Assembly (NCBI RefSeq): GCF_964204645.1
Contig: NC_134026.1
Span: 15,720,150 to 15,784,149 of the forward strand
DNA from: Tubulanus polymorphus
Lineage: Eukaryota; Animalia; Nemertea
DNA: 64,000 bases
Direction: 5' to 3'
A program made the translations under genes and the position numbers. The notes under the pieces are model-generated. The model saw only the letters and a program-made list of their open reading frames with translations, had not been told where the DNA came from and ran no database searches. Each line of letters begins with the position of its first letter. Within the stretch, counting starts at the first letter, position 1. This document shows, piece by piece, positions 1,737 to 22,681 of the stretch.

Positions 1737-1770
1737 TGTAATGGTTTCCTCTAGGTTATGATGAACACAA
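1737..1770 (-). mobile_element. Terminal 34 bp of the Gypsy 3' LTR
   Basis: TGTAATGGTTTCCTCTAGGTTATGATGAACACAA matches 22448-22481 with 2 mismatches. Confidence 0.85.
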
Positions 1771-2128
1771 GTAATAGGGGTAATGGGCTTTCAAGCCAAA
1801 GGTCGAACGGTCGAGCTCATTAAAAAACAAAACATTAAAAGTAATTTAAAACTATAATATATTTTCATAACCGTGTGCATTTTATATTATAACTAAATAT
1901 TTATTCTAAGATATCAATAATTTAAAAAGCATATTGTATAAATCAATTTATTTACAATACACAAATTCATATAATGAAATATATTTTAATAATAATAATT
2001 ATTCTATTATTCAACTGAAATACACACGGTTATGAAAATATATTATAGTTTTAAATTACTTTTAATATTTGTTTTTAATGAACTCGACCGTTCAAACTTT
2101 AACCTGAAAGCCCATTACCCCTATTACT
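1770..2128. repeat. Left terminal fold-back palindrome (~360 bp) of the viral block
   Basis: 1770-1882 is the reverse complement of 2018-2127 (8 substitutions, two 1-nt indels). The AT-rich core pairs imperfectly. Confidence 0.95.
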
Positions 2129-2334
2129 CTTAAAATAATCATATACATGAATAACATTTAAATTGACAGATTATTCAATATAAAAGTATATATTTACAAC
2201 ATTATTTCAATATTCATATTTGTGTGAGTTAGATTTTGAAACATTAAAAGTGTTAGTAAAGTGTGATTGATATAATGCATGATATAAATCATTGAACTTC
2301 TAAAATCAATTTTAACAAAAAATTTAGTATTAAA

Positions 2335-3707
2335 ATGGAAGCAAATAAGTACTACTGTCCAACATGTAATATCAATATAGATAAATCCCAAAAAGCAAGA
2401 CACAATAAAACTAAAACACATTTAGAGAATAAATTGAAATTAGAATATGAAGATGATATATTAGAAACTAAATCAGATAAATTAAAGAATGAAAAAGAAA
2501 CATACAAATGTGATACATGTAATCAATCATTCAGTGATAAAAGATATTATAATGAACATTTAAAATCTAAAAGTCATATAAGAAATAAGAATAATGATAT
2601 TTTAGGTGAAGATTATTTTGATAAAGATAATGATAAGAAACAGAAGACAATTAAAAGCATAAAAAATAAATTAAACAATAAAAGACCATACATGGAAGAT
2701 GTAAGAAATTATATTAATTCATTAGATAATAAAAAAGATATAGAGATAACCGAAGCATTTAAAAGTGATATTGGCCCAGCAGCTATCGAGTTTAAATTTC
2801 ATAAAGGAAAAACATTAGAAGAAAATAAAAAACATTTAGAAAATATGAAAGAAATAATAAAAATAATAACTGATGTTGAATATCCTAAAATTAGTATATC
2901 TTCTAAAGTTAAATTCATAAAATCTGAAGATAAACCAATATATAATATAAATTCTCATTCACAACGTATCATTTCAAAATAACATATAGATGATAAATTA
3001 GATAAATGTTATAATGAAGTAAAAACTAAAATAGAAGAGAAATATTTTGAAGGATCTGGTTTAATATTTGATGAAATAATATTTATGACTTTACATGTTT
3101 ATAACACAAAATATAATAAGTTAACTAAATCAAAACCAATTGATGAAAATAACGTATCATACTATAAAGAACCAGATATTGAAGCATCGAGTTATATTAA
3201 ACTACCATTTAAAACTAATGCTGTTATAAATGTACAAAATGAAGATGATAAATGTTTTCTATGGGCTATAATAAGTTGTTTACACCCAGTTGAAGATTAT
3301 AAACAACATAGTTTTAGATTAACTCATTATAAACCATTTGAAAATAATTATAAGATAGATAAGTATCCTGTTAGAATTAAAAATATCCCAAAAATAGAAA
3401 GAGATAATAATATAAAGATAAGTGTATTTGATTTAATCAAATTACCAAATACAAAAGGTAACAATATAAAACATTATACATTAGAACCTTTATACCTATC
3501 AAAAGATTATGATTCAAATGATGTTATAGATATACTATATTATGAGAATCATTATATGTGGATTAAACAAATCGATTTATTTTTTAAATCAGAAAGTGAT
3601 CACCATAAAATATATCTTTGTAGAAAATGTTTACATAGATTCAGTAATGAAAGTACATTATTTAATCATAAACAATTATGTGAAAATCATGATTATTGTA
3701 AATTAGT
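2335..3707 (+). pseudogene. Protein-primed-type family B DNA polymerase, N-terminal part (copy A), with one nonsense codon and a 3' truncation
   Basis: ORFs 2335-2982 and 3085- are in frame across a TAA, where copy B has Gln. Two C2H2 fingers and motifs EGSGLIF, SSYIKLP, INVQNEDDKCFLWAI, HYMWIK and CRKCL. Confidence 0.85.
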
Positions 3708-4529
3708 TGTTTCTGCGCATCGAATGAAGTGTTATCATTTCCAATTATTGGGGATCTTGTTTCAACTTGCGCACCTAGAATACATATCAAATAAGTTCTA
3801 ATAGATTGATTTATTCTTTGTATACCAGCTTTAGTAAAACCTTCACCATTTTCTAAAATGAAATTAACCCAACCATTATTGTTTTGTTGTTGTATATTAT
3901 TATAATATTTTGGTAATTCATTCCAATTTAGTGTTCTTATATCTGAATTTGTCATTATTTTTCCAAATTCTTTAGTATATGATGTTCCTAATCCACCCAT
4001 TGTTCCAACTTTTGCTCTAAAATCTTTATTTGAATTAATATTAAATTCATTACATATTTTATAAAATTTAGAAAAATTAATATTATTATTCAATTCTTTA
4101 AAATATTTTGAACCTGGTAAAGGACATTCTAATTCATCTAATATTAATTTTATTTGAAAATATGTATGAAATCTAAAAAGTGATAACATCAATGGTAAAC
4201 TTGGTTTGTTTAAATGATCATTCCAACTAATTCCACATCCTGTTGTTGCGCAATAAACAGCAAAATTTAATTGGTTCTCCCAATACTTTATTAGATTTTA
4301 ATAACCATTGTTTTGCCTCATTTAAATTTTTGAAATTAATTGTATACACATGAAATATATTTTCCATCTTTACATGAAAATTATTACTTTCAGTAACATA
4401 AATATATAAATCAATTAATGAATTTAAAACTTCATTTCTATATGTAATATCTTTATTAAAATCTATTGCTGGAATATAATATTTAATTGATTTATTATAT
4501 TGGAAAGCTTTTGGAAAACTATCTGCCAT
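3707..4529 (-). pseudogene. Conserved Polinton-like virus gene X (QLNFAVYCATTGCG motif), frameshifted and 3'-truncated; function unknown
   Basis: ORFs 4227-4529 and 3662-4192 are joined by the reading YWENQLNFAVYCATTGCGISWNDH. A paralogous stretch lies at 17868-18410. Confidence 0.65.
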
Positions 4530-4545
4530 TTATATAATTAAAAAA

Positions 4546-4980
4546 TTAATAATTTATTAATTCTTTTAATAATTTATCTTGTTCTTCAACTGTTATATGA
4601 CCATTTAAACTTATTATATAATCTAGTGTATTCTTTAATTTATTAATTTCTTTTATATTAGTTTTAATTTTTTCTTTATTACTTTTTATATTTAATTTTG
4701 AACTTATACCAGTTAAAACACTTGAACTTAATCCTAATACACCAATTGATATAGCTAAAGGTGTTAATGGACTGAATATTGCTAGAAATGTTATTACAGA
4801 ACTAATTGTAACCGAACCACTTATAATCATATAATATATAATTTTACTTTTTAAATATTTTTTCTTTTTTATCTTAAGGTCACTTTCAAATTCTAAAATT
4901 TGTTTTTCTAAATATATTTTTAATTTAGTTTTACTGATATCATGAGGAATAATATCAATATTATCAACTTTATCATCCAT
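4546..4980 (-). CDS. Viral 144-aa protein with two predicted transmembrane segments flanked by coiled-coil-like regions
   Basis: Intact ORF with hydrophobic IIYYMIISGSVTISSVITFLAIF and LAISIGVLGLSSSVL. Starts at TAAATG. Confidence 0.7.
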   Translation of the reverse strand: MDDKVDNIDIIPHDISKTKLKIYLEKQILEFESDLKIKKKKYLKSKIIYYMIISGSVTISSVITFLAIFSPLTPLAISIGVLGLSSSVLTGISSKLNIKSNKEKIKTNIKEINKLKNTLDYIISLNGHITVEEQDKLLKELINY

Positions 4981-5000
4981 TTATTTAGCAAAAAAAATTA

Positions 5001-5423
5001 TTAATTAGTAAATCTATATGCTACAAATATAACAATAACAGTTCCGCCTAAAATCCATATTATTTCATATTTCTGTTGTTCATTACTTGGGGTATAATAA
5101 TCTGATAAATTAGGTTTGTATAGATGTAATTTTTCTTTATTTGTAACCGCGTTATATAAACTCATTGCATCATCAACTGATTGAAAATCTCTGTGTGAAA
5201 TCTTCTGATCATATAATTCTTTATTGATGTAATTCATATAGTTTTGTCTCTTTTCTCTATATTATTCTGCTGCTTTATTGTATTTCTCTAATGCTAAGTT
5301 ATGTCTTTTTTGTTCTGTTAATGATCCATTTTTATCAATATGCTTAAATAAATAACCACCACCAGTAAATGCTAAAGCGTTAACAATTGCCGATCCTATA
5401 ATAGTTATAACTGCAGAAGCCAT
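5001..5423 (-). pseudogene. Viral ~140-aa protein with hydrophobic N-terminus and C-terminal TM anchor; one internal stop
   Basis: MASAVITIIGSAIVNALAFTGGGYLF...EQKRHNLALE is in frame with ORF 5001-5237, which ends IIWILGGTVIVIFVAY. Confidence 0.7.
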
Positions 5424-5552
5424 TTATTTAGTAAAATAATTACGCATTTATATAGGAGGAATATATTTTTGTTTTTCTAAATAATCAATAGTTAAATTAG
5501 ATAAAGTAACTGCTTATGTTAATTTTAAAATATCATTTATATCAAATCTATC

Positions 5553-5622
5553 ATGTAGAAGGTAAAACATTATCAGATGTAGAAGGTATAACATTATCAG
5601 ATGTAGAAGGAATAACATTATT
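5553..5622 (-). repeat. 24-bp tandem repeat x3 encoding NV(I/L)PSTSD
   Basis: ATGTAGAAGG at 5553, 5577 and 5601. Confidence 0.85.
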
Positions 5623-5972
5623 ATCAATTTCATTACTTTAAATATCAACAACACCACTTTTATTATTATCTATTTTACTTATTCTATATTTGAATTGATT
5701 AAAGTATTCTCCAAAATACTTACTATAATCATCATAAGGTATTATATAATATATAACTGATATCATTTCACTTGGACTTTGTATTTCATATATTCCTCCT
5801 TCCATTTATTATAGAATTTTTTATTAAAATTAAAATTTTAATACATAACACTATTCAATTGAGAATTTATAATATTTACGATAGGTAGAACACAATATCC
5901 GTGTTGACGCGATGAGGAGAGAATCCCACAATGATAATAAAAAGTCCGAAGATGAAACTTCGAGATAGTAGT

Positions 5973-6019
5973 TTATTTCAACGTTTCGACTATATCCTAA
6001 TAGTCATCTTCAGGAATAA
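5973..6019 (-). ncRNA. Minimal type I hammerhead ribozyme (Penelope unit 1)
   Basis: Reverse complement reads TTATTC-CTGAAGA-T-GACTAT-TAGGAT-ATAGTC-GAAA-CGTT-GAAATAA. Confidence 0.8.
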
Positions 6020-6328
6020 TGAGATACTACAGAAATTATGAGATATATATACAATCCAGAGACAAAGAGACTAATTCAAGTAATCAGAGATGATACAAAC
6101 TAAAGGAAAATTAACGTAGAAACAGTTACACGCTAAAATAGATTAAAGGGAAGCAAACTAAGGGGTGATTATAAACAACAATAGTGAGTATGAATATAAA
6201 TGAAACTTAAAGTCAGTAGTAAAAAGAAAGACAAACTAAGGGGCACTTAAATTAAAACAAAGGTGAATACAAGTTAAGTCAGAGACGAAATTGATGAGAG
6301 AACAAATAACAAATAATCAAAGGGGAAA

Positions 6329-8737
6329 TCAAGTGTTGAGTTTAACCAGTTTACAGAGGAATTTTGATATAAGTTTATTATGGGGTGAAAAACCATTGTT
6401 AAGGTTTACAACGTTGTTGGAATTTTCAATAATTAATGCAGATTCCAAAATATGTCTTCTAGTTTTATCGCTGCAAGGGTAAACTAATTCAGCATTAGCA
6501 AAATCAAAATTGTGTGAAGTCTGAAAAACATGACTAGCAACTCCGCTTTCAGGTTTAAAGTTTTTTACATCTAATTTATGCTCTTTTATGCGTTGATTAA
6601 GATTCCGACCTGTTTCTCCTATATATACTTTGTCGCAAACTTTACAAGGAATTTTATAAATTCCATAGTTTAGGGATTCGGTTTTCGGTTTGTTGTTAAT
6701 CAATATGTTACTAAGTTTATTATTGTATTTAAAGATAAGTTGTTTATTTAGTGACCGAAGAGAAACTTTAGAATTCTCGAGGAAAGGTACATACGGTACA
6801 ATGATAGGCTGTTTATCGGTAGCCAACGTAGGAGTTCTAAGGTTGTTATTTCTAAAATGCGTAGTACGAGCTTTAAGTAGAGCTTTTTTCAATAGGAAAT
6901 CGGGGTAGGCAAGTTTTTTGAGAGATTGGTTGATATGGTGAATTTCATCGGGTAGAAATGAGGGGTCGCAAATTCTCAAAGCGCGAAGAAATAATCCTTG
7001 AGCTAAACCGAGTTTAATATCCGGAGAAGTAAAAGAGAAGTAATGGAGGTAGGATTCAGCGTTGGTAGGTTTCCTATAAACCGCGAATTTCAAAAAGGAT
7101 CCACAGTTAAAAATCAAAACATCCAGAAAAGGTATTTTACTATTAGATTCCCATTCATACGTAAAAGCCAGAGACGGGTAAAGGGAGTTTAAATATATAA
7201 GAAAGTTATCAACATTGAAGTCAAAGGGAACCAAAGCCAGAACATCGTCAACATATCTGAGCCAGATTTTAGGGTGAATATCAGTGTAAAGAGGCAATAT
7301 TTCAGATTCAACATGTTCTAGGAATAAATTAGCTAGAATAGGACTAAGAGGATTTCCCATAGCGATACCGAATGTCTGTTCGTAAAAACAGTTGTTGAAT
7401 TCAAAAAAGGAGTCCGTCGTACAAATAGAGATAAGGTCGATGATACAATCCGTAGGAATGCCGAAGTTAATGTTAAGTGATGGTAATCTGCGTTTTAAGA
7501 AATCAAGAGTAGGTCCAAGAGGAACATTGGTAAAAAGGGAAGTAACATCAAATGATATAAATTTGTCGTTGCCAGGGATAATATTCTTAATACGTTCAAG
7601 TAAGTGTTGATTATGGCGAAGGTGCGACGGAGAGAACGAACCGAGCACCGGAGATAATTGTTTCGCGAGAAATTTAGATAACCGGTATGTAGGAGAATTA
7701 CAATTGGAGACTATAGGGCGCAGTGGAACATTATCTTTATGAATTTTAGGCAATCCATAGATATATGGTAAAGAGGGAAGACGTGAATGGAACTTATTCA
7801 GAGTTTCTTTAGCGCAGGGGAAACGTTTAATAATATCCGAAAGACTTCTGTTGAAATTAGCTTGCATACGAGGAAGAGGATTCGATTTAAGTTTCTTATA
7901 AACACCAGGATTATCCAAGAGAGATTGCATTTTAACATTATAATTATCCAAATCTAAAATCACAATCTTGCCACCTTTATCAGCCTTAGATATTTTAATA
8001 GTCTTTAACTTCCGTAGTTCTTGGAGGGCGAGCCGAAATCGACGAGGTAGATATTCAAAAAGGTTCCTGTTGAGTTGATCGCATATAGCCTGTAGATTCA
8101 TGAATATAAAGTTATAGTCCAAACTGTTCGGAGATGATTTGCGATATTCCAATTGGGTGACAAAGTCTAAAACATGTTTATCTTGATGAGGAAGAGAAAA
8201 ATTCAAACCGTAGCCGAGAAGTTGACACTGAGTAGAAGATAACGTGGTTGAAGACAAATTTACTATGTTTTCGGTGTTGCTAAATCTAGTCCAAGGGCTG
8301 GAATCAATGAGTTTATTCAGTTGGTTGGTAAGATCCACGGACTTTCTGTGCTGATGATATTTTCCAGAGCCTTGAACAATAGTGGAGAGCGATTTCCAGA
8401 GGAATAGGTCCGGTACGTGTGACTTCAAATAATTTTGAGATTGACGGAATTTGTAGAACTGATAGTTACAGTCTTCCTTAGCACGATCTATAGCGAATTT
8501 GAGTTGCTTGTTAGCTTCGGGTGGAAACGCAGAGCTGGAGTCGTATTTCCAAATCCAAGAAAGTGATCGCGGAACCACTTTTTCGGCATAACACTCCTGA
8601 AGGAACTTGACTTTACTTTTAGCAGTCCTGGATTTGATATAGCATTTCTCATAATTTCGGAAGCTAGCGACGAGGTACGGGAACGTGAAGAAGAAGAATT
8701 TTAATACGATATTTCGATCCGTGGGTAGCATGATCAC
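6329..8737 (-). CDS. Penelope-like reverse transcriptase with C-terminal GIY-YIG endonuclease (intact, ~800 aa)
   Basis: Motifs KADKG, YGLPKIHK, PLRPIVS, SFDVTSLFTNVP, GIAMGNPLSP, RYVDD, FLDV and GIYKIPCKVCDKVYIGET. No Neptune-type zinc-finger linker, so Penelope/Poseidon-type. Confidence 0.97.
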   Translation of the reverse strand: MIMLPTDRNIVLKFFFFTFPYLVASFRNYEKCYIKSRTAKSKVKFLQECYAEKVVPRSLSWIWKYDSSSAFPPEANKQLKFAIDRAKEDCNYQFYKFRQSQNYLKSHVPDLFLWKSLSTIVQGSGKYHQHRKSVDLTNQLNKLIDSSPWTRFSNTENIVNLSSTTLSSTQCQLLGYGLNFSLPHQDKHVLDFVTQLEYRKSSPNSLDYNFIFMNLQAICDQLNRNLFEYLPRRFRLALQELRKLKTIKISKADKGGKIVILDLDNYNVKMQSLLDNPGVYKKLKSNPLPRMQANFNRSLSDIIKRFPCAKETLNKFHSRLPSLPYIYGLPKIHKDNVPLRPIVSNCNSPTYRLSKFLAKQLSPVLGSFSPSHLRHNQHLLERIKNIIPGNDKFISFDVTSLFTNVPLGPTLDFLKRRLPSLNINFGIPTDCIIDLISICTTDSFFEFNNCFYEQTFGIAMGNPLSPILANLFLEHVESEILPLYTDIHPKIWLRYVDDVLALVPFDFNVDNFLIYLNSLYPSLAFTYEWESNSKIPFLDVLIFNCGSFLKFAVYRKPTNAESYLHYFSFTSPDIKLGLAQGLFLRALRICDPSFLPDEIHHINQSLKKLAYPDFLLKKALLKARTTHFRNNNLRTPTLATDKQPIIVPYVPFLENSKVSLRSLNKQLIFKYNNKLSNILINNKPKTESLNYGIYKIPCKVCDKVYIGETGRNLNQRIKEHKLDVKNFKPESGVASHVFQTSHNFDFANAELVYPCSDKTRRHILESALIIENSNNVVNLNNGFSPHNKLISKFLCKLVKLNT

Positions 8738-8830
8738 GATAGGTAGAACACAATATCCGTGTTGACGCGATGAGGAGAGAATCCCACAATGATAATAAAA
8801 AGTCCGAAGATGAAACTTCGAGATAGTAGT

Positions 8831-8877
8831 TTATTTCAACGTTTCGACTATATCCTAATAGTCATCTTCAGGAATAA
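8831..8877 (-). ncRNA. Minimal hammerhead ribozyme (Penelope unit 2)
   Basis: Same sequence as 5973-6019. Confidence 0.8.
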
Positions 8878-9190
8878 TGAGATACTACAGAAATTATGAG
8901 ATATATATACAATCCAGAGACAAAGAGACTAATTCAAGTAATCAGAGATGATACAAACTAAAGGAAAATTAACGTAGAAACAGTTACACGCTAAAATAGA
9001 TTAAAGGGAAGCAAACTAAGGGGTGATTATAAACAACAATAGTGAGTATGAATATAAATGAAACTTAAAGTCAGTAGTAAAAAGAAAGACAAACTAAGGG
9101 GCACTTAAATTAAAACAAAGGTGAATACAAGTTAAGTCAGAGACGAAATTGATGAGAGAACAAATAACAAATAAATAATCAAAGGGGAAA

Positions 9191-11600
9191 TCAAGTGTTG
9201 AGTTTAACCAGTTTACAGAGGAATTTTGATATAAGTTTATTTTGGGGTGAAAAACCATTGTTAAGGTTTACAACGTTGTTGGAATTTTCAATAATTAATG
9301 CAGATTCCAAAATATGTCTTCTAGTTTTATCGCTGCAAGGGTAAACTAATTCAGCATTAGCAAAATCAAAATTGTGTGAAGTCTGAAAAACATGACTAGC
9401 AACTCCGCTTTCAGGTTTAAAGTTTTTTACATCTAATTTATGCTCTTTTATGCGTTGATTAAGATTCCGACCTGTTTCTCCTATATATACTTTGTCGCAA
9501 ACTTTACAAGGTATTTTATAAATTCCACAGTTTAGGGATTCGGTTTTCGGTTTGTTGTTAATCAATATGTTACTAAGTTTATTATTGTATTTAAAGATAA
9601 GTTGTTTATTTAGTGACCGAAGAGAAACTTTAGAATTCTCGAGGAAAGGTACATACGGTACAATGATAGGCTGTTTATCGGTAGCCAACGTAGGAGTTCT
9701 AAGGTTGTTATTTCTAAAATGCGTAGTACGAGCTTTAAGTAGAGCTTTTTTTCAATAGGAAATCGGGGTAGGCAAGTTTTTTGAGAGATTGGTTAATATG
9801 GTGAATTTCATCGGGTAGAAATGAGGGGTCGCAAATTCTCAAAGCGCGAAGAAATAATCCTTGAGCTAAACCGAGTTTAATATCCGGAGAAGTAAAAGAG
9901 AAGTAATGGAGGTAGGATTCAGCGTTGGTAGGTTTCCTATAAACCGCGAATTTCAAAAAGGATCCACAGTTAAAAATCAAAACATCCAGAAAAGGTATTT
10001 TACTATTATATTCCCATTCATACGTAAAAGCCAGAGACGGGTAAAGGGAGTTTAAATATATAAGAAAGTTATCAACATTGAAGTCAAAGGGAACCAAAGC
10101 CAGAACATCGTCAACATATCTGAGCCAGATTTTAGGGTGAATATCAGTGTAAAGAGGCAATATTTCAGATTCAACATGTTCTAGGAATAAATTAGCTAGA
10201 ATAGGACTAAGAGGATTTCCCATAGCGATACCGAATGTCTGTTCGTAAAAACAATTGTTGAATTCAAAAAAGGAGTCCGTCGTACAAATAGAGATAAGGT
10301 CGATGATACAATCCGTAGGAATGCCGAAGTTAATGTTAAGTGATGGTAATCTGCGTTTTAAGAAATCAAGAGTAGGTCCAAGAGGAACATTGGTAAAAAG
10401 GGAAGTAACATCAAATGATATAAATTTGTCGTTGCCAGGGATAATATTCTTAATACGTTCAAGTAAGTGTTGATTATGGCGAAGGTGCGACGGAGAGAAC
10501 GAACCGAGCACCGGAGATAATTGTTTCGCGAGAAATTTAGATAACCGGTATGTAGGAGAATTACAATTGGAGACTATAGGGCGCAGTGGAACATTATCTT
10601 TATGAATTTTAGGCAATCCATAGATATATGGTAAAGAGGGAAGACGTGAATGGAACTTATTCAGAGTTTCTTTAGCGGAGGGGAAACGTTTAATAATATC
10701 CGAAAGACTTCTGTTGAAATTAGCTTGCATACGAGGAAGAGGATTCGATTTAAGTTTCTTATAAACACCAGGATTATCCAAGAGAGATTGCATTTTAACA
10801 TTATAATTATCCAGATCTAAAATCACAATCTTGCCACCTTTATCAGCCTTAGATATTTTAATAGTCTTTAACTTCCGTAGTTCTTGGAGGGCGAGCCGAA
10901 ATCGACGAGGTAGATATTCAAAAAGGTTCCTGTTGAGTTGATCGCATATAGCCTGTAGATTCATGAATATAAAGTTATAGTCCAAACTGTTCGGAGATGA
11001 TTTGCGATATTCCAATTGGGTGACAAAGTCTAAAACATGTTTATCTTGATGAGGAAGAGAAAAATTCAAACCGTAGCCGAGAAGTTGACACTGAGTAGAA
11101 GATAACGTGGTTGAAGACAAATTTACTATGTTTTCGGTGTTGCTAAATCTAGTCCAAGGGCTGGAATCAATGAGTTTATTCAGTTGGTTGATAAGATCCA
11201 CGGACTTTCTGTGCTGATGATATTTTCCAGAGCCTTGAACAATAGTGGAGAGCGATTTCCAGAGGAATAGGTCCGGTACGTGTGACTTCAAATAATTTTG
11301 AGATTGACGGAATTTGTAGAACTGATAGTTACAGTCTTCCTTAGCACGATCTATAGCGAATTTGAGTTGCTTGTTAGCTTCGGGTGGAAACGCAGAGCTG
11401 GAGTCGTATTTCCAAATCCAAGAAAGTGATCGCGGAACCACTTTTTCGGCATAACACTCCTGAAGGAACTTGACTTTACTTTTAGCAGTCCTGGATTTGA
11501 TATAGCATTTCTCATAATTTCGGAAGCTAGCGACGAGGTACGGGAACGTGAAGAAGAAGAATTTTAATACGATATTTCGATCCGTGGGTAGCATGATCAC
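9191..11600 (-). pseudogene. Penelope-like RT/GIY-YIG ORF, unit 2, with a +1 frameshift in a homopolymer near 9746-9752
   Basis: ORFs 9735-11600 and 9191-9688 are near-identical to unit 1. Confidence 0.92.
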
Positions 11601-11693
11601 GATAGGTAGAACACAATATCCGTGTTGACGCGATGAGGAGAGAATCCCACAATGATAATAAAAAGTCCGAAGATGAAACTTCGAGATAGTAGT

Positions 11694-11740
11694 TTATTTC
11701 AACGTTTCGACTATATCCTAATAGTCATCTTCAGGAATAA
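11694..11740 (-). ncRNA. Minimal hammerhead ribozyme (Penelope unit 3)
   Basis: Same sequence as 5973-6019. Confidence 0.8.
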
Positions 11741-12053
11741 TGAGATACTACAGAAATTATGAGATATATATACAATCCAGAGACAAAGAGACTAATTCAA
11801 GTAATCAGAGATGATACAAACTAAAGGAAAATTAACGTAGAAACAGTTACACGCTAAAATAGATTAAAGGGAAGCAAACTAAGGGGTGATTATAAACAAC
11901 AATAGTGAGTATGAATATAAATGAAACTTAAAGTCAGTAGTAAAAAGAAAGACAAACTAAGGGGCACTTAAATTAAAACAAAGGTGAATACAAGTTAAGT
12001 CAGAGACGAAATTGATGAGAGAACAAATAACAAATAAATAATCAAAGGGGAAA

Positions 12054-13845
12054 TCAAGTGTTGAGTTTAACCAGTTTACAGAGGAATTTTGATATAAGTT
12101 TATTTTGGGGTGAAAAACCATTGTTAAGGTTTACAACGTTGTTGGAATTTTCAATAATTAATGCAGATTCCAAAATATGTCTTCTAGTTTTATCGCTGCA
12201 AGGGTAAACTAATTCAGCATTAGCAAAATCAAAATTGTGTGAAGTCTGAAAAACATGACTAGCAACTCCGCTTTCAGGTTTAAAGTTTTTTTACATCTAA
12301 TTTATGCTCTTTTATGCGTTGATTAAGATTCCGACCTGTTTCTCCTATATATACTTTGTCGCAAACTTTACAAGGTATTTTATAAATTCCACAGTTTAGG
12401 GATTCGGTTTTCGGTTTGTTGTTAATCAATATGTTACTAAGTTTATTATTGTATTTAAAGATAAGTTGTTTATTTAGTGACCGAAGAGAAACTTTAGAAT
12501 TCTCGAGGAAAGGTACATACGGTACAATGATAGGCTGTTTATCGGTAGCCAACGTAGGAGTTCTAAGGTTGTTATTTCTAAAATGCGTAGTACGAGCTTT
12601 AAGTAGAGCTTTTTTTCAATAGGAAATCGGGGTAGGCAAGTTTTTTGAGAGATTGGTTAATATGGTGAATTTCATCGGGTAGAAATGAGGGGTCGCAAAT
12701 TCTCAAAGCGCGAAGAAATAATCCTTGAGCTAAACCGAGTTTAATATCCGGAGAAGTAAAAGAGAAGTAATGGAGGTAGGATTCAGCGTTGGTAGGTTTC
12801 CTATAAACCGCGAATTTCAAAAAGGATCCACAGTTAAAAATCAAAACATCCAGAAAAGGTATTTTACTATTATATTCCCATTCATACGTAAAAGCCAGAG
12901 ACGGGTAAAGGGAGTTTAAATATATAAGAAAGTTATCAACATTGAAGTCAAAGGGAACCAAAGCCAGAACATCGTCAACATATCTGAGCCAGATTTTAGG
13001 GTGAATATCAGTGTAAAGAGGCAATATTTCAGATTCAACATGTTCTAGGAATAAATTAGCTAGAATAGGACTAAGAGGATTTCCCATAGCGATACCGAAT
13101 GTCTGTTCGTAAAAACAATTGTTGAATTCAAAAAAGGAGTCCGTCGTACAAATAGAGATAAGGTCGATGATACAATCCGTAGGAATGCCGAAGTTAATGT
13201 TAAGTGATGGTAATCTGCGTTTTAAGAAATCAAGAGTAGGTCCAAGAGGAACATTGGTAAAAAGGGAAGTAACATCAAATGATATAAATTTGTCGTTGCC
13301 AGGGATAATATTCTTAATACGTTCAAGTAAGTGTTGATTATGGCGAAGGTGCGACGGAGAGAACGAACCGAGCACCGGAGATAATTGTTTCGCGAGAAAT
13401 TTAGATAACCGGTATGTAGGAGAATTACAATTGGAGACTATAGGGCGCAGTGGAACATTATCTTTATGAATTTTAGGCAATCCATAGATATATGGTAAAG
13501 AGGGAAGACGTGAATGGAACTTATTCAGAGTTTCTTTAGCGGAGGGGAAACGTTTAATAATATCCGAAAGACTTCTGTTGAAATTAGCTTGCATACGAGG
13601 AAGAGGATTCGATTTAAGTTTCTTATAAACACCAGGATTATCCAAGAGAGATTGCATTTTAACATTATAATTATCCAGATCTAAAATCACAATCTTGCCA
13701 CCTTTATCAGCCTTAGATATTTTAATAGTCTTTAACTTCCGTAGTTCTTGGAGGGCGAGCCGAAATCGACGAGGTAGATATTCAAAAAGGTTCCTGTTGA
13801 GTTGATCGCATATAGCCTGTAGATTCATGAATATAAAGTTATAGT
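12054..13845 (-). pseudogene. Penelope-like ORF, unit 3, 5'-truncated, with two homopolymer frameshifts
   Basis: ORFs 12599-13828 and 12280-12552. Confidence 0.92.
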
Positions 13846-14548
13846 TACTTTTCCGGATATTAAACTCGGTTTAGCTCAAGGATTATTTCTTCGCGCTTTG
13901 AGAATTTGCGACCCCTCATTTCTACCCGATGAAATTCACCATATTAACCAATCTCTCAAAAAACTTGCCTACCCCGATTTCCTATTGAAAAAAGCTCTAC
14001 TTAAAGCTCGTACTACGCATTTTAGAAATAACAACCTTAGAACTCCTACGTTGGCTACCGATAAACAGCCTATCATTGTACCGTATGTACCTTTCCTCGA
14101 GAATTCTAAAGTTTCTCTTCGGTCACTAAATAAACAACTTATCTTTAAATACAATAATAAACTTAGTAACATATTGATTAACAACAAACCGAAAACCGAA
14201 TCCCTAAACTGTGGAATTTATAAAATACCTTGTAAAGTTTGCGACAAAGTATATATAGGAGAAACAGGTCGGAATCTTAATCAACGCATAAAAGAGCATA
14301 AATTAGATGTAAAAAACTTTAAACCTGAAAGCGGAGTTGCTAGTCATGTTTTTCAGACTTCACACAATTTTGATTTTGCTAATGCTGAATTAGTTTACCC
14401 TTGCAGCGATAAAACTAGAAGACATATTTTGGAATCTGCATTAATTATTGAAAATTCCAACAACGTTGTAAACCTTAACAATGGTTTTTCACCCCATAAT
14501 AAACTTATATCAAAATTCCTCTGTAAACTGGTTAAACTCAACACTTGA
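13846..14548 (+). pseudogene. Inverted 3' Penelope segment (RT C-terminus plus GIY-YIG)
   Basis: ORF 13898-14548 equals the C-terminal 216 aa of unit 1. The 3' UTR continues to 14966. Confidence 0.92.
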
Positions 14549-14857
14549 TTTCCCCTTTGATTATTTGTTATTTGTTCTCTCATCAATTTCGTCTCTGACT
14601 TAACTTGTATTCACCTTTGTTTTAATTTAAGTGCCCCTTAGTTTGTCTTTCTTTTTACTACTGACTTTAAGTTTCATTTATATTTATACTCACTATTGTT
14701 GTTTATAATCACCCCTTAGTTTGCTTCCCTTTAATCTATTTTAGCGTGTAACTGTTTCTACGTTAATTTTCCTTTAGTTTGTATCATCTCTGATTACTTG
14801 AATTAGTCTCTTTGTCTCTGGATTGTATATATATCTCATAATTTCTGTAGTATCTCA

Positions 14858-14904
14858 TTATTCCTGAAGATGACTATTAGGATATAGTCGAAACGTTGAA
14901 ATAA
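14858..14904 (+). ncRNA. Minimal hammerhead ribozyme (inverted segment)
   Basis: CTGAAGA at 14864-14870, stem II GACTAT/ATAGTC, GAAA at 14890-14893, palindromic AACGTT and stem I TTATTC/GAAATAA. Confidence 0.82.
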
Positions 14905-16212
14905 ACTACTATCTCGAAGTTTCATCTTCGGACTTTTTATTATCATTGTGGGATTCTCTCCTCATCCTTATAATATTTAATTGCGCGTCAGATATAATAT
15001 AAATGTGCATTTTGTAATTTAAACCTCCTTTTTTCTTTTTCATGAATAATTGTATCCCATCTCTAGTGTTCCGTAGTTTTTTTCCCAGAACCATGTAATA
15101 AGTTATCTTCAGTTGTTCTAAAATCTAACCATAATGCATATTCATTACCGATATAATAATCTATTTGATTAATATTACAATCTTCAGATGATTTTACTTT
15201 TTCATTCATAAATTGTTTTCTAATTTCTGGCCACTGATCTATCATTCTCATTCCTTGACAGAATATTTTATTTGCTATACCTTCGATAGTTATTTCTACT
15301 TTTGATATTTCCGGATTATAATAATTAACAACATTTATTGCACCATTAGACTATGTAGCAATGGTAAAAAATATTAATATACCTTTAATAGATCTTCTTG
15401 GGAAGTTAATATTCTCATTGATTATTTCATCATTTGCATTAATAGTTACAATTTTAAATTTTTCGATATAATCATATAATAATGAAAATCCTTGATTATA
15501 TTGAGTTTGAATTGTGCTAGCAATATTTTCATCAGTTACTGTATCATATTCAAAACATATATTCGATAATTTATAACCCATACTTTTAACAACGCTTGAC
15601 AATAAAATTTCATTAACAGGAGCAAATGTTATTTCATATATAATATCTTCTTGTATAACATATTTATATAAAGGCGCATTATTATTTATCAATTCAAAGT
15701 CTAATGGAATTTTATATTTACTACCATAAATCTTTTTTTATCAAATTATCTGTAGCATTAGTTACTACTGCATTATTAGCTTCTGATCTTAATTTATTTT
15801 GGTTTTCTGATTGGATGCCTTGAAATATCATATCATTTCTATTTTCTTTTGTTAACCATAAATCTTTGTAATGCATAAATAAATTATAATCATCTAATGA
15901 GAAAACTGTTTCTGGTCCAATCTTTATAGATAATTTTTTAATCAAATATCTCCCAACATTATCTATAACATAATTATTATTATTGCCAGTTACATTTATA
16001 TCAGCCGATAAATGAATACTATTTGGAACATAAAAAGTATTTGTATTTAATCTCGGGATTCTAACATATAAAGTTTGATTGGGACTAATATTTGAAGGAT
16101 TATGAGTAATTATATGATGAGATCTCTCTGCTTTAATAGCATTAGATATTCTAGAACTCTTAGAAGGATTGATATAACTCCCACTCATTTATTTCAGAGA
16201 AAAAAAATAATT

Positions 16213-17626
16213 ATTTATTTTTTATCATATTAACTAATCCAAAAATAATAGCACTTACAACTGTAATAAAGAATAAAATAATATGTTCAGCAGCAAAGTT
16301 AAGAATATTCCCAGCAGATTTTAAAACAAAACCAACAATTGACGCTATAACTCCGGGTAATGCTGCAGCAGATTATTTAGATAGTTCCCATAGATATTTT
16401 GCTAATTTTTCTAAAACTATCTTTATCTTTATACTGTATAGAATTATTATGACTTGGGGGTTTATCTGGTTTATTAGGAGTAGGTGTAGATTTTTATGAA
16501 TTTTATATAGCTAAACCTATTGTTGTAAATATCATAGTTACCGCTGTTAGAATTGAGAGAATTGTTATACCTTCTAACTTAAACAATTTATTCTATCTTT
16601 TAATGATATTTCAGAATTTGGTTTTATCAACAAATATTTAAAAATAACTTTTAATCTATTAATATTATAATCATATGATTTTGATAATAATTTAATTTCT
16701 TCTTTCTGTAATTCTATGTTATATTCTAAATCCTCTTTTCCTTTTTTTAAATTCAATTTCTTCAATTACTTTATTATCTCTTTTTATCAGTTCTATTTTT
16801 TTCTAAAGTTCTTATTTTAAAATCTCTTATACTTTTATCATGCGCAAATTTGTCAGCTTTATTTCATATACTAATAATTTCTCGAATTGCTTTATCAGAA
16901 AATATATTTAAATCTTCTAATTGTTGATCTGTTGCATCTATTAATCCTTTCGGTAAAAGTTTTTCAATTCGAACTTTATTTGATTTAAGTTTACTAGTTT
17001 TGGAAGTTATATTCTGTTCAGAGGTTGTTTCTGTTTCTAAATTATTATTGATTATTTCAAATAATTCATTAATTCTTTGTTTAAATACTCTTTTATTTTG
17101 ATTTATTTCTGTGTCGGTAACATTTTCTATTTCATTACTATTACTTATTCTTTTAATTCTAGATGGTTCTAAATAACTCAAAGTTGATTCTGCTAATATT
17201 TTTTTTTGATTCTTATAAGTGATATTAATATAATAATCATCTTTCAAATGATAATAATATTCACCATCTAAAGATTTTAATTCTCTTACTTAATATCTGG
17301 CACCTCTATCATTTATATTATATCCAGATCTTTCAAATATAGGTTTGAAATTATAATATATTCATTATATTCTAAATTTTGTTTTACTAAATCTGGATTT
17401 TCATTTTCAGCATTTATTCTCGATCTAGTTTTTTTAAAATCAAACTCGTCTGTTGAAGGGGCTTTAGAACCACTACAGTATCTGCTAAATTAGAATTATA
17501 TGCTGGTCCATCATCATTATCAATATTAGTTTCATTGAAATCAGGTTGCGGTTCATCAGGTATAAATCCTTCATTATTATTTCCCATTTCTCCCATTTCA
17601 TAAGCTTCTCCACCTTCTACATCCGT
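16213..17626 (-). pseudogene. Long viral protein with coiled-coil middle and hydrophobic multi-helix C-terminus, disrupted
   Basis: ORF pieces 17414-17596, 16864-17247 and 16574-16765. C-terminal readings ITILSILTAVTMIFTTIGLAI and AAALPGVIASIVGFVLKSAGNILNFAAEHIILFFITVV. The start appears mutated (TAAACG). Confidence 0.55.
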
Positions 17627-17867
17627 TTATATCTTATAAAAATTAGAATTTAAAATATAATATTCCTCCTATTACAATTCCTATACAAGTTATGGCTAAT
17701 TTAGTATTTTCATGGGATTTATTATCATTATTATTTTTAATTATATCATGTTGGATAATATCAGTTTTATATATTCTAAAGTATTGTAATCTTTTATTTT
17801 AGAATCATAAAACAATTTAATAATCTTAGTTTAAGTTTCTGTTGATTGTATATGTTTTTTAATTTTT

Positions 17868-18410
17868 TCACCTTCCATTAATTAATAAATTGGGTCCTAT
17901 ACAATAATTTAATCTTACATGAGATTTATCTAAATAATTTTGGTACCTGACTATATTTTCTGGAATCGATCTATTTTTATCATTATGAATTGAATCTTCA
18001 AATAATACTTTAAATTGTTTTTGTGTATCAAATGATGTATTTAAATTTCCAATTATTGGGGATCTTGTTTCAACCTGTGATCCTAATATACATATCAAAT
18101 AAGTTCTAATTGATTGATTTATTCTTTGTATACCTGATTTAGTAAAACCTTCACTATTATCTAAAATTAAATAAACCCAACCATTATTGTTTTCTTGTTT
18201 TAAATGATCATAAAATTTCGGTAATTTATTAAAATTTAATGTTTCTAAATCCTTAGTTTCTATTTTACCAAAACCTAAATTAATTATTATAGATATTGTA
18301 ATAACTATTAGATGGTATGGGAAGTGCACAATATTGTAAAATATTTTCAGGACAAGGAATTGATCTTATTGTTCCAATTTTTGTTCTAAAATCAGAATTA
18401 TTTAGGATAC
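17868..18410 (-). pseudogene. Second, diverged copy of viral gene X (3' part)
   Basis: Shares NNGWV...EGFTK.GIQRINQSIRTYLICILG.QVETRSPIIGN with 3707-4192. Confidence 0.75.
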
Positions 18411-18413
18411 TAT

Positions 18414-20767
18414 TCATATTACCCGAATAGATGAACATACATCTTTAACATATTCATTTTTTAATTCATCATAGAATTGTTCTTTTAATAATTCAGTTAT
18501 ATTGAAATCATTATGCGATTTATAAAAACTATATGGAATTGCTCCTTTATATCTCATTAATTGAAAATCATCATTATTTGGATAGTGCTGTTTTAATATT
18601 TTTAATTCATCATCAACTAATGATTTTGATAAATTATCTAATGAACTACTTAAAAATCTATATGAGTCTATAAATCTTAGACACCCAAATTGGAAAGATA
18701 TATGTGTTTTAGCTAACATTTTGAATTTATAAGTTGTTATTTAATCTTTTGATCTATTTGAATTTAATCTTTCTATTTCATTATTGATTTCTTCTATTTT
18801 ATGACATAGCTGTTTGATAAATAAATGAGCATCATACCCCGATAAATTATGAAATATAACTGCAACAAAATTAATTTACTTAGCTTGTAAGTTACAATTC
18901 TCATGTGCTGCACCTCTAAACTTTCCATTCAAATGATCATGGTCTCTAACTTTTTTATCTTTATAATTAAATAGTAATTCACAATATTAACATTTATCTG
19001 AAAACTCAAATTCTTCTTTATCTTCTTCTGTCATTATAATTTCTTTATTTTTATTTAACAATTTATTAAATTTTATTTCATATTCAATTAATAAGTCACA
19101 AAAATGATTGATAACATTTTCATTTCTATAATGATAATATTCACTTTCAATTAGTTCTGGATAATCAGATTTTATATATAATCCAAAAGCTGCAGCACTT
19201 TGATGAATCTTTTTAATAGTATTTGTTATTAGAGGATCTGAATAATCAATTACATCATTTTCATTAGAATTTAATTTCTTTCTTTTATGATATATTTCTT
19301 TTCTATCTTGATCAGTTAATTCCTTATTTAGTGATTCAAAATCACCATATATATTATAAATGGTACTATATTCTTGTAATCATATTTTTGGAATTCTAAT
19401 ACTTTATCCTTTTCATTTGGTAAAACTATTTTACAATAATCATGATTATCACATAATTGTTTATGATTTAATAATGTACTTTCGTTGCTGAATCTATGTA
19501 AACATTTTCTACATAGATATATTTTATTGTGGTTATTTTCTGTTCTAAAAAATAAATCGATTTGTTTAATCCACATATAATGATTTATAATATAATATAT
19601 CTATAACACCATTTGAATCATAAACTTTTGATAGGTATAAAGGCTCTAATGTAAAATGTTCAATTTAATTGCCTTTTGTTTTTGGTAATTTGATTAAATC
19701 GAATACATTTATTTTTACATTATTATCTCTTTCTATTTTTGGAATATCTTTAATTCTAACTGGATAATTATCTATCTTATAATTATTTTCAAATTGTTAA
19801 TCTAAAACTATGTGTTATATCTTCTGTTGGATGTAAGCAACTAATTATTGACCATAGAAAACATTTATCATCAGAATTTTGTACATTTATAACAGCATTA
19901 GTTTTAAATGGTAATTTGATATAACTTGATCCATTTATATTACCATCTTTATAATATGATAAATTATTTTCATCTATTGGTTTTGATTTAGTTAACGTAT
20001 TATATTTTGTGTTATAAACATGTAAAGTCATAAATATTATTTCATCAAATATTAAACCAGATCCTTCAGAATATTTCTCTTCCATTTTATTTTTTATTTC
20101 ATTATAACATATATCTAATCTATCATCTATATGCTGTTTAGATATAATATGTTGTGAATGGGAATTTATATTATATATTGGTTTATCTTCAGATTTTAAA
20201 AATTTAACTTTAGCCGATATACTAATCTTAGGATATTCTACGTCTGTAATCATTTTTATAATATTGTTCATATTTTCTAAATGTTTTTTATTTTCTTCTA
20301 ATGTTTTGCCTTTATGAAATTTGAATTCAATAGCAGCTGGTCCAATATCACTTTTGAATGCTTCGGTTATTTCTATTTATTTTTTATTATCTAATGAATG
20401 AAAATAATTTCTAACATCTTCCATTTATGTTTAATTTATTTCTTATTCTTTTAATTGTCTTCTGTTTCTTATCATTATCAAAATAATCTTCACCTAAAAT
20501 ATCATTATTCATATTTCTAATATGACTTTTAGATTTTAAATGTTGTTCATAATATCTTTTTTCACTGAATGATTGATTACATGTATCACATTTGTATGTT
20601 TCTTTTTCATTCTTCAATTCCTCTAATTTATTTTCTAATATATCATCTTTATATTCTAAGTTTAATTTATTTTCTAAATGTGTTTTAGTTTTATTATGTC
20701 TTGCTTTTTGAGATTTATCTATATTAGCTTTACATGTTGAACAGTAGTACTTCTTATTTGCTTCCAT
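18414..20767 (-). pseudogene. Protein-primed-type family B DNA polymerase (copy B): C2H2 fingers, endonuclease-VII-like motif and exonuclease part; polymerase core deleted
   Basis: Fragments with YGDFES, VRDHDHLNGKFRGAAHENCNL, FHNLSGYDAHLFI, RFIDSYRFLSSSLDNL and KGAIPY. Several frameshifts. Confidence 0.9.
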
Positions 20768-20838
20768 TTTAATATCAAATTTTTTTTTTAAATTGATTTT
20801 AGAAGTTGTTCATATTCATATATATATGAATATCTTAA

Positions 20839-20950
20839 GAGTAATAGGGATATTAGGGGTTCATAACAAAGGTCGAAAAATAAATTCGAGTGTGCGAGTG
20901 TTTTTCGACCCTTCGACCTTTGGTATGAACCCCTATTATCCCTATTACTC
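20839..20950. repeat. Right terminal fold-back palindrome (112 bp) of the viral block
   Basis: GAGTAATAGGGATATTAGGGGTTCATAACAAAGGTCGAA pairs with TTCGACCTTTGGTATGAACCCCTATTATCCCTATTACTC (2 mismatches). Confidence 0.95.
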
Positions 20951-22420: not shown

Positions 22421-22434
22421 CGTCATAGGGTTTT

Positions 22435-22447
22435 ACTTCTGACACCA
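22435..22447 (-). promoter_or_regulatory. Primer-binding site complementary to the tRNA-Leu 3' end
   Basis: TGGTGTCAGAAGT directly follows the LTR end ...TTACA on the minus strand. Confidence 0.85.
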
Positions 22448-22681
22448 TGTAATGGTTTCCTCCACGTTATGATGAACACAAGAAAACGCTGTCTTGATAT
22501 TATTATCAACTGATATATTTGTGTCTACGTGTCATGTCTACGTGTCGTGTGGTTGCAGCATAAGAGAGCGAAAAAGAAGCTGTACTACATAATATGACAC
22601 AATAAATATAGGTTACAATAGATGATCCTAATGGGATGACATGAGACAGCTAATGGGAGTGTGCTAATGGGATATGTTACA
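22448..22681 (-). mobile_element. Gypsy 5' LTR (~234 bp)
   Basis: TGTAA...TTACA termini and adjacent PBS. Flank CACGC (22682-22686) versus TACGC (1732-1736) as TSD. Confidence 0.85.

Follow-up and report, generated by a model that had tools for sequence, protein, structure and literature searches.

Introduction

Poxvirus-associated Polinton-like viruses (PLVs), promoters shared between an element and its helper, and terminal palindromes each have precedents. PLVs recovered from entomopoxvirus occlusion bodies are the precedent for the first (PMC11296320). For the second, virophages such as mavirus share a promoter with their helper. The late promoter of vaccinia consists of TAAAT(G) and a conserved T ten bases upstream (PMC11980589), and the core of the viral polymerase recognizes its TAAA (PMC12917281); the late initiator of African swine fever virus (ASFV) is TATA (PMC7163114). 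Terminal palindromes of Halocafeteria elements have been proposed to prime replication, although they favour elements lacking a protein-primed polymerase (pPolB) and may be accidents (preprint 10.64898/2026.07.28.741278). Animal PLVs whose capsids lie outside Maverick-Polinton groups 1 and 2 have also been described (PMC10120064; PMC11296320; preprint 10.64898/2026.06.19.733378), and the word "promoter" is absent from the main text of these three reports; PMC10881513 likewise gives no promoter detail, and we found no comparable promoter evidence for such elements in print. At stake is the nature of animal Polintons, which could be viruses in their own right or satellites; with a promoter signature countable in DNA by itself, they could be sorted by helper, and hidden pox-like viruses would be indicated in their hosts.

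Composition of the locus

The window analyzed here is a 64,000-nucleotide stretch of the Tubulanus polymorphus genome, in which an earlier note had described positions 1770 to 20949 as a single, extremely AT-rich element with hairpins at both termini. The AT bias was borne out (21-24% GC in the element segments vs 35% in an internal Penelope block and about 37% outside), but the interval consists of remains, joined by deletions, from two or more diverged Polinton-like elements, here termed A and B, lying inside one Gypsy retrotransposon. The 5' part of the PolB gene and a second gene, gene X, are each present twice, and 9.1 of the 19.2 kb (5868-14979) are foreign Penelope sequence. Since the 5' part of PolB occurs twice, both hairpins represent the polymerase-side end, of different elements. 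At the deletion junction (5553), 740 reads continue into another common sequence, and the junction is not theirs. No tRNA genes were found.

Both element ends sit within the same Gypsy, on the reverse strand. The outer 33 bp of its 3' LTR, cut by the Polinton insertion, remain at 1737-1769 and match the LTR at 22448 with 92% identity over 38 nt. The rest, recognized by translation and LTR ends, occupies 20950-22681 with a protease-RT region cut near the RNase H start, a primer-binding site and a 234-bp LTR; the 5-bp sequences on either side of the whole Gypsy are alike but for one base. The Penelope-type array, also on the reverse strand and identified by RVT_1 and GIY-YIG, is made up of three tandem copies (99.2-99.7% identical) and an inverted piece, shows a 12-bp duplication at both edges and splits the major capsid gene with its 9 kb.

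Gene content of the element family

Element B retains a truncated 5' fragment of a protein-primed PolB (2335-3707, forward strand) with zinc fingers, the N-terminal region and one stop, 69% identical to residues 1-466 of the full-length protein P0029. The broken fragment of element A (18430-20767, reverse strand) ends near residue 805 of 1365 and is 60-75% identical to P0029. Both genes start with TAAAATG, and the two copies share 88% nucleotide identity, with dS of 0.29, dN of 0.06 and dN/dS of 0.21; the gene X copies give a dN/dS of 0.31. The duplicated sequences have diverged under purifying selection. The endonuclease-VII-like CxxC..DHDH..HxxCN motif reported earlier in PolB was confirmed in element A (about 18885-18992), with PF02945 matches in seven of nine PolB search hits. 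Its reading as a hint of hairpin processing is not sustained, because the domain is shared with other Polinton PolBs (three of five). A related protein, P0036, matches DNA_pol_B_2 (E 1.8e-18), and one distant PolB locus was present in IMG/VR.

The 5' part of gene X (3707-4529, reverse strand) is broken and is 79% identical to its L001 counterpart over 210 aa; in relatives the product has about 440 aa and a C-terminal hydrophobic segment. The second copy is a 3' part (17646-18420, reverse strand) with 83% nucleotide identity to 3707-3967. None of eight members of the gene X family has a Pfam match, and a predicted model (pLDDT 47.8) gave single-helix structural matches only (Z at most 5.7). The remaining genes likewise lie on the reverse strand: a 144-aa membrane-type protein (4546-4980) with a homologue in L001 and a weak SLATT-like match below the cut-off (SLATT_fungal, E 0.004); a conserved 139-aa protein with two hydrophobic segments and one stop (5001-5423), 77% identical to L001:2014-2430 and of a family present in 10 loci; the 3' remnant of a conserved 75-aa gene reaching the deletion junction (5427-5553; 83% to L001); and a 5' remnant (5554-5805) of a gene that in L002-L004 comes next after the capsid gene, with an N-terminus judged by eye to resemble L003:2461 and L004:2287. 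The double jelly-roll major capsid gene (14968-16188) is broken by frameshifts and stops and is 71-74% identical to P0001; its last codons, cut off by the Penelope array, lie at 5838-5879 (matched by eye to the C-terminus of P0005). The predicted model of P0001 matches PBCV-1 and iridovirus capsids (E 1.8e-14). No sequence in the PDB was matched by the capsid profile, and no capsid relative was found in IMG/VR. Finally, 16211-17640 holds a broken homologue of a conserved protein that has 485 aa and, at its C-terminus, two hydrophobic segments; the start of the homologue is decayed, and it is 44-61% identical, in pieces, to L001:4328-5782, within a family found in 15 loci. The name GasderminX, known from the adintovirus literature, was not given to this protein. 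The abundance of membrane-type genes is supported by a hydrophobic 19-mer in five of nine L001 proteins tested.

As previously noted, the window contains no integrase, packaging ATPase or protease, and deletion had been offered as a possible cause. This explanation holds for the first two, because the closest relatives encode both: rve integrases were found in L001 (E 1.5e-10) and L003, and Pox_A32 ATPases in L001 (E 4.6e-11), L003, L004 and L013, while among 40 capsid-bearing loci 12 have integrase and 20 have ATPase matches. Judged by these relatives, the family has an rve integrase and an A32 ATPase, and an rve integrase is among the findings that the earlier note had listed as speaking against its reading. 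For the protease, a profile of four Polinton adenain-type proteases found nothing in the 40 partial loci or the window (best E 0.24). The longest relative locus spans 11.5 kb without PolB, and no complete relatives were recovered. Together, the relatives encode a jelly-roll capsid, an A32 ATPase, an rve integrase and an EndoVII-bearing PolB, and the family belongs to the PLVs in the broad sense by its double jelly-roll capsid, A32 ATPase and integrated genome.

TAAATG as a probable promoter signature

Within the window, TAAATG marks five of six structural-gene starts (gene X, 4529; the 144-aa protein, 4980; the 139-aa protein, 5423; the 5' remnant, 5805; and the capsid, 16188), the sixth being decayed, in agreement with the earlier observation. 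Its conservation in relatives, a check that had been called for, was assessed on the first ATGs of ORFs of at least 100 aa, leaving out beforehand the near-copies L002, L014, L023, L028 and L038 and the short PolB loci L054-L056 and L061. In the capsid clade (L001, L003-L011) the motif is present at 43 of 48 first ATGs, against 67 of 1065 in the control. It is independent of AT content, occurring at 16 of 18 starts in six loci of 31-44% GC and at 0 of 12 starts in equally AT-rich sister lineages, and on the capsid tree it requires two changes. Six other Polinton loci have it at 1 of 45 starts, but the classical, protease-bearing Polinton L053 (cut at 13,100, flank excluded) has it at 5 of 13, and the motif is thus not unique to the clade.

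Upstream positions are also constrained. T is found at -12 in 45 of 48 TAAATG starts (vs 33/87 other TAAATG) and at -13 in 38 of 48 (vs 34/87), and A at -18 in 38 of 48 (vs 23/87), which defines a clade-wide two-part motif, an A/T block ending in T at -12 followed by TAAATG. Many starts read TATAAATG, and the integrase, ATPase and deoxynucleoside kinase genes of relatives carry the TAAATG motif as well. By its sequence the motif matches the late promoter of a large DNA virus, vaccinia, except that the T peak lies nine bases upstream of TAAAT, a single position away from that described for vaccinia. A purine at -3 is present at only 5 of 48 capsid-clade starts, in contrast to 39 of 45 other Polinton starts.

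The sister lineages have TATA within 12 nt of the ATG at all 12 starts (control 46/341), with a count of 7 of 12 for L013 (control 5/176), and they seem to bear an asfarvirus-like TATA in place of TAAATG. TATA near the ATG is, however, somewhat enriched in other Polinton loci (13/45 vs 88/1183), which weakens the asfarvirus reading.

Stop-start coupling was discarded, as the TAA of TAAATG serves as stop codon of the upstream gene in only 1 of 55 cases, and AT bias as the source is contradicted by the AT-rich sisters. The raw density of TAAATG (19/171 and 20/240 ATGs vs 37/1809 outside) was not relied on, since AT content confounds it.

Terminal palindromes

The terminus of element B (1770-2128) has arms of about 113 bp, a loop of about 135 nt and the tip AGT, and folds back with a z of -19.8 (0/100 shuffles as good); that of element A (20840-20949) has 38-bp arms and a loop of about 34 nt (z -11.5 for 20839-20950; 0/200 shuffles). 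Their energies, -99.2 and -36.1 kcal/mol, compare with best values of -30.6 and -10.8 in equal-length windows inside the element. Both reported fold-backs are therefore real, although they are ends of two elements and not of one, and with the interval composite, palindromicity is shown for the polymerase-side end only. Among reads carrying the same species label, 1829 leave the element at 1770 into mixed flanks, and depth is about 1400-1550 over arm, loop and arm vs 5-7.5 in the flank, which suggests that some 200-300 copies are integrated, with the terminus at 1770 fixed and the inner arm conserved. The polymerase-side terminus is thus fixed and palindromic at many insertion sites, and the inner arm is a family trait. 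Closed, pox-like telomeres are not what integrated copies show: these stop at the tip of the outer arm, so that the duplex contains the loop and the two arms, as open palindromes ending at a Polinton-type AGT tip that is fixed, at this polymerase-side end, across many flanks. An 18-nt terminal pattern matches 10 IMG/VR contigs, none with a fold-back at the match, and none of the capsid-bearing relative loci contains the PolB start or an element terminus.

It is quite possible, if somewhat short of an even chance, that the hairpins have no role in replication and are fold-back errors or short derivatives bounded by terminal repeats, fixed once in an ancestor, with replication primed purely by a terminal protein. 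The very unequal arm and loop lengths of the two ends (113/135 vs 38/34), the 543 reads that diverge at 1826 and so reveal other end types, and the accidental origin offered as an alternative for Halocafeteria (preprint 10.64898/2026.07.28.741278) agree with this. Against it, the inner arm is kept at a read depth close to that of the PolB start, and arms co-vary within each end (5 diagnostic columns vs 0), having changed as a pair since the separation of the two lineages. In element A, whose arms are identical at 36 of 38 positions, each arm varies with its partner and not with element B. This alternative concerns the self-priming step alone and is compatible with helper dependence.

A proposed helper dependence

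The earlier note had proposed a virophage-like satellite of a pox-like virus. The clade-wide, AT-independent, two-part, vaccinia-late-like promoter favors that proposal, and no helper was seen. We consider it likely that the family consists of high-copy integrated PLVs with promoters of the poxvirus late type that need a co-infecting pox-like cytoplasmic virus for the transcription of their genes. Integration by rve at the AGT tip would bring copies into chromosomes, where they would remain silent, presumably because their promoters suit a pox-type and not a host polymerase. Upon helper infection, the post-replicative RNA polymerase of the helper would start within TAAAT and add a poly(A) leader at the 5' end, thereby providing the A at -3 missing from the DNA. 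PolB would replicate the genome and the ATPase package it; the capsid probably contains a membrane, and its maturation would proceed without adenain. In the least certain step, which is less likely than not, the 3' end of a displaced strand would fold onto the inner arm and prime synthesis of the complementary strand, and nicking, possibly by the EndoVII domain, would reopen the self-primed end. Against the helper reading, no helper virus, transcript start or poly(A) leader was observed, the element must reach the nucleus and the germ line in order to integrate, and the relatives, all of them partial, leave room for a polymerase encoded by the element.

An unlikely alternative is an autonomous Polinton that replicates in the nucleus and is transcribed by host RNA polymerase II, the motif being a core promoter or a signal for translation particular to the lineage, perhaps recognized with the help of a factor that the element encodes. 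Hundreds of chromosomal insertions do require nuclear access, the integrase and PolB are of ordinary Polinton type, and both the motif in L053 and the recurrent TATAAATG would fit. Nevertheless, the motif overlaps the start codon and leaves no space for a TATA box about 24 bp upstream of a start site (spacing: PMC7163114), T at -3 is the opposite of the purine of other Polintons, and the two-part layout resembles that of pox post-replicative promoters. It is distinctly improbable that pox-type promoters are combined with a polymerase supplied by the element itself or by a cytoplasmic partner that is no true poxvirus (a yeast pGKL-like linear element, an egovirus or an asfarvirus relative). Yeast linear elements combine a TAAAN initiator, poly(A) leaders and their own polymerase (PMC6211774), basal egovirus genes are present in marine sediments, the sister L013 has a VLTF3-like gene (E 6e-4, below the cut-off), and the genomes seen are partial; yet Pfam scans of 24 window ORFs and 26 + 39 proteins of these partial relatives found no RNA polymerase subunit, and the motif here is an exact TAAAT rather than TAAAN. 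The first layout proposed, one element whose 2-kb terminal inverted repeats, with the PolB start inside them, have decayed, accounts for the inverted 88% nucleotide match of 2295-3708 to 19424-20807 and for the AGTAATAGGG that opens both ends, but is hardly tenable and largely refuted, given that neutral decay after insertion predicts a dN/dS near 1 instead of 0.21, that PolB differences by codon position are 31/23/74, that gene X is duplicated as well and that a target duplication is absent, the flanks being non-adjacent parts of one Gypsy.

Returning to pox-type helper dependence, the chances are close to balanced that the members of a widespread, integrase-bearing, protease-less clade of animal PLVs are endogenous satellites that exploit cytoplasmic large DNA viruses, with the helper promoter as signature and ends that may self-prime. 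If so, sub-lineages would display the late promoter of their helper (TAAATG, pox-like; TATA, asfarvirus-like), undiscovered pox-like viruses would be predicted in their hosts, and the elements could give animals an inherited protection in the style of mavirus; with copies integrated by the hundreds, it would be plausible for animals to have their own version of the mavirus system.

Comparison with known systems

The family resembles Maverick-Polintons (Polintoviricetes; "adintoviruses") in its protein-primed PolB (33-41% identical to those of L051, L053 and L057), rve-chromo integrase, A32 ATPase and jelly-roll capsid, and it shares the AGT of their AGT...ACT tip (PMC8097293). Its ATPase, however, matches theirs weakly, and its capsid barely aligns with four of theirs (hhalign probability 8.8) and lacks PF21738 in three of three relatives, whereas L051 and L053 match at E 3e-47 and 2e-44; the capsid falls outside groups 1 and 2. 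Maverick-Polintons further differ in having adenain, none of which was found in the partial loci of the family, Kozak-type instead of pox-type starts and no palindromic end. Polinton-3_NV, Polinton-N1A_NV and Aquintovirus-related elements of corals, hydrozoans and bivalves are likewise animal elements with capsids outside both groups, and the family is set beside Polinton-3_NV and the Aquintovirus-related PLVs by their published descriptions.

The entomopoxvirus PLVs (AHEV_PLV1/2, CBEV_PLV1 and Ca_PLV1; PMC11296320) are, like the family, proposed poxvirus hyperparasites, with a replicase adjoining the terminal repeat and end sequences tied to pox termini. They differ in encoding adenain and either a tyrosine recombinase or no known integrase, and they were found inside occlusion bodies, their promoters not being analyzed, whereas promoters alone link the family to poxviruses. 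Mavirus and the endogenous virophages and PLVs of Cafeteria and Halocafeteria share with it rve integration, a promoter in common with a helper (a putative one for the family) and terminal palindromes, but have protist hosts, a CroV-type late motif and short palindromes in mostly non-pPolB elements, as against a presumed animal host, a pox-type motif and a pPolB. The yeast cytoplasmic linear elements pGKL1/2 replicate by protein priming, as would be expected of the family with its pPolB; they have their own RNA polymerase and are not known to carry a capsid or an integrase. In common with the family, they possess a pox-like initiator, in their case TAAAN with poly(A) leaders (PMC6211774).

Organization of the interval

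The interval 1770-20949 derives from a clade of Polinton-like viruses that has a palindromic end and a pox-type promoter signature, the latter strong and well controlled. Reading the minus strand from the right, a hairpin (20840-20949) is followed by a 5' fragment of PolB, the 3' part of a conserved gene called X (about 440 aa in relatives), a conserved gene of the 485-aa type and the capsid gene, and then by the start of the next gene. A junction at 5553 leads into three small genes and another gene X, represented by its 5' part, and a junction at 3707 into another PolB 5' fragment, this one inverted, and the other hairpin (1770-2128). An earlier note had described a single element with a hairpin at each terminus, a layout largely refuted by the duplicated and diverged PolB 5' part and gene X. 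The PolB fragments share 88% identity and have a dS of 0.29, a dN of 0.06 and 31/23/74 differences by codon position; the gene X copies in the window show a dN/dS of 0.31. These substitution patterns imply that the copies diverged as functional genes and did not arise by repeat decay within a single element, and hence that both hairpins represent the polymerase-side end.

On the left, the interval is bordered by the outermost 33 bp of a Gypsy LTR; on the right it abuts a Gypsy of the same type, truncated near RNase H, whose full LTR lies at 22448-22681. The 5-bp sequences flanking the entire Gypsy mismatch at one base. We infer that at least two insertions within one Gypsy were joined by a deletion, which would also account for the missing target duplication. 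Since 740 reads continue past 5553, that junction is restricted to the copy in the window.

The extreme AT content formerly attributed to the whole interval is limited to its outer parts (21-24% GC), the centre (5868-14979) being a Penelope-type array of three tandem copies and one inverted piece, 99.2-99.7% alike, with RT and GIY-YIG domains. The array is flanked at its edges by a 12-bp duplication and cuts off the last codons of the capsid gene from the rest. It is young, copy 1 retaining an 800-aa RT and GIY-YIG ORF and the other copies being frameshifted; endonuclease-bearing Penelope elements are, by description, animal elements (PMC8557442), which makes an animal host probable. Elsewhere in the window, 1-256 holds tandem repeats of 49 nt and 8 nt, 28075-29254, 55387-56340, 58386-59553 and 63516-64000 belong to a dispersed repeat family whose internal period is about 153 bp, and 44759-45229 was identified by eye as a fragment of an integrase-like ORF from another retroelement.

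A pox-type promoter signature

The first ATGs of ORFs of at least 100 aa were compared with those of ORFs shorter than 40 aa. TAAATG at the starts of structural genes, a feature observed in the earlier note, is present at 5/6 such starts in the window and is conserved in the surrounding capsid clade (L001 and L003-L011), where it occurs at 43/48 starts against 67/1065 in the control. The six clade loci of 31-44% GC show 16/18. TAAATG is also found at 5/6 starts in L019, L034 and L035 and at 4/5 in L017-L018. The count is 0/12 in sister loci of about 30% GC and 0/12 in L013; for 15 capsid loci at a greater distance it is 1/37, and for six other Polinton loci 1/45. In L053:408-13000, a classical Polinton that bears a protease and was binned in a bacterial MAG, TAAATG stands at 5/13 starts, and pox-type starts may recur across Polinton groups. 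On an 18-row capsid tree, which omits 22 loci whose capsids were short or broken, the TAAATG label requires two changes, one for an 11-row clade (100/100) and one for L017-L018.

The TAA of TAAATG doubles as the stop of the upstream gene in only 1/55 cases. Compared with 87 other TAAATG sites, 48 TAAATG starts from 13 loci are enriched in T at -12 (45/48 versus 33/87), T at -13 (38/48 versus 34/87) and A at -18 (38/48 versus 23/87); in the window, four of the five TAAATG structural starts have the T at -12. The resulting two-part pattern occurs seven times in the 64 kb (2.4 in shuffles), four times at these structural starts, twice elsewhere in the element and once outside. Vaccinia late promoters, described as TAAAT(G) preceded at ten bases by a conserved T (PMC11980589), share this layout, the T peak of these starts falling on the ninth base, one off. 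Vaccinia intermediate promoters combine TAAA with an AT-rich block 15-19 bases upstream (PMC11980589), and TAAA is recognised by the polymerase core (PMC12917281). A purine at -3 is present at 5/48 clade starts versus 39/45 other Polinton starts, which fits a poly(A) leader made by slippage (a mechanism described in PMC6211774) rather than host-type initiation.

In the sister loci L012, L015, L020 and L021, TATA lies within 12 nt of the ATG at 12/12 starts (control 46/341), and in L013 at 7/12. This resembles the late initiator of ASFV, TATA with a median leader of 9 nt (PMC7163114), and these lineages possibly use a different helper. Given that TATA near the ATG is also seen at 13/45 starts in other Polintons (control 88/1183), the asfarvirus-like reading is weaker than the pox-type one. 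L013 also encodes a member of the Bcl-2 family (E 2e-18), together with a gene weakly resembling poxvirus VLTF3 (E 6e-4); the two lie at L013:2448-2858 and L013:6543-7049.

Copy number and the palindromic terminus

About 12% of one genomic run labelled as the same species, possibly not independent of the assembly, was mapped onto 1400-5870, yielding 26,915 reads, mostly 90-99% alike. Depth rises from 5-7.5 in the flank to about 1400-1550 over the two arms and the loop between them, and reaches about 1650 where PolB starts, which suggests roughly 200-300 copies of the family. Reads depart into mixed sequence at 1770 (1829 reads) and 1769 (448), with agreements of 0.33 and 0.36, revealing a fixed tip with many different flanks. 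A second end type exists, as 543 reads diverge at 1826. In 520 reads, at five listed joints, shorter spacers connect the PolB start with sequence immediately internal to the inner arm. About 540 reads of other copies contain an additional GC-rich stretch at the loop centre (1939-1946), missing in the window copy.

Both fold-backs are far stronger than shuffles and than other element DNA, so that the hairpins first reported stand, as polymerase-side ends of different elements. Among 38 terminal columns, five are common to both arms of one end and unlike the other end and none shows the opposite, indicating that arms are kept alike within each lineage. The end is not a closed pox-type telomere in the integrated copies, because these terminate at the outer arm tip.

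Gene set and relatives

The window capsid, whose nearest relatives are 70-74% identical, clusters with L001-L005 (support 0.999) among forty metagenome loci. The predicted structure of a related capsid, P0001 (pLDDT 68.4), matches double jelly-roll capsids (E 1.8e-14), and the family is broad, counting 224 representatives with E values of 1e-30 or below. L001 encodes an rve-chromo integrase, an A32 ATPase and a deoxynucleoside kinase, and integrase and ATPase matches were obtained in 12 and 20 of the 40 loci, respectively. The lack of both genes in the window is therefore due to deletion, as the earlier note had allowed. A profile search for a protease gave no match in the 40 partial loci. Deoxynucleoside kinase genes lie in two loci of the TAAATG clade, at L001:10343-10981 and L008:2898-3380.

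An EndoVII motif, previously noted in PolB, was recovered in 7/9 PolB search matches, two of them above the cut-off. It is also present in 3/5 other Polinton PolBs, in which homing-type nuclease insertions are already known (PMC11161782), and hence does not point specifically to hairpin processing. The abundance of membrane proteins is borne out by L001, in which 5/9 proteins tested are hydrophobic. Short near-perfect intergenic palindromes occur at L002:3143-3178, L003:3787-3822, L004:3183-3255 and L051:13350-13381, the first three between convergent genes; these palindromes may act as transcript-end signals. The Polinton sequences found in bacterial or archaeal genome bins or under bacterial protein names (L051-L061, P0032, P0070) are probably host contamination.

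Proposed mechanism and comparison with known systems

The most likely course of events, which we moderately favour, is that the family would integrate through rve at its AGT tip, and that integrated copies would stay silent until a pox-like cytoplasmic virus provides post-replicative transcription, whereupon PolB, ATPase and capsid would produce particles. The many hydrophobic proteins of L001 and the failure to find an adenain suggest that the particle may contain a membrane. More tentatively, the 3' end of the displaced strand might self-prime through the terminal palindrome. Overall, the original observation is partly confirmed and its helper-dependent interpretation partly supported, the one-element layout being lost.

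Pox-associated PLVs are known and carry an adenain (PMC11296320); the word "promoter" is absent from the main text of that report. Among the papers listed by a literature search that covered few subscription papers, none joined a Polinton term with TAAAT(G). Terminal palindromes and helper-like promoters have been described for virophages and PLVs of protists (preprint 10.64898/2026.07.28.741278), and animal capsids outside the Maverick-Polinton groups in PMC10120064 and preprint 10.64898/2026.06.19.733378. Polinton tips and 6-bp duplications are treated in PMC8097293, with further background in PMC8502044, PMC11131425 and preprints 10.64898/2026.10.13.758929 and 10.1101/2024.03.23.586382. With respect to Polintons, the family capsid barely aligns with four of their capsids (probability 8.8), whereas its PolB is 33-41% identical to those of L051, L053 and L057, so that the family is a mosaic.
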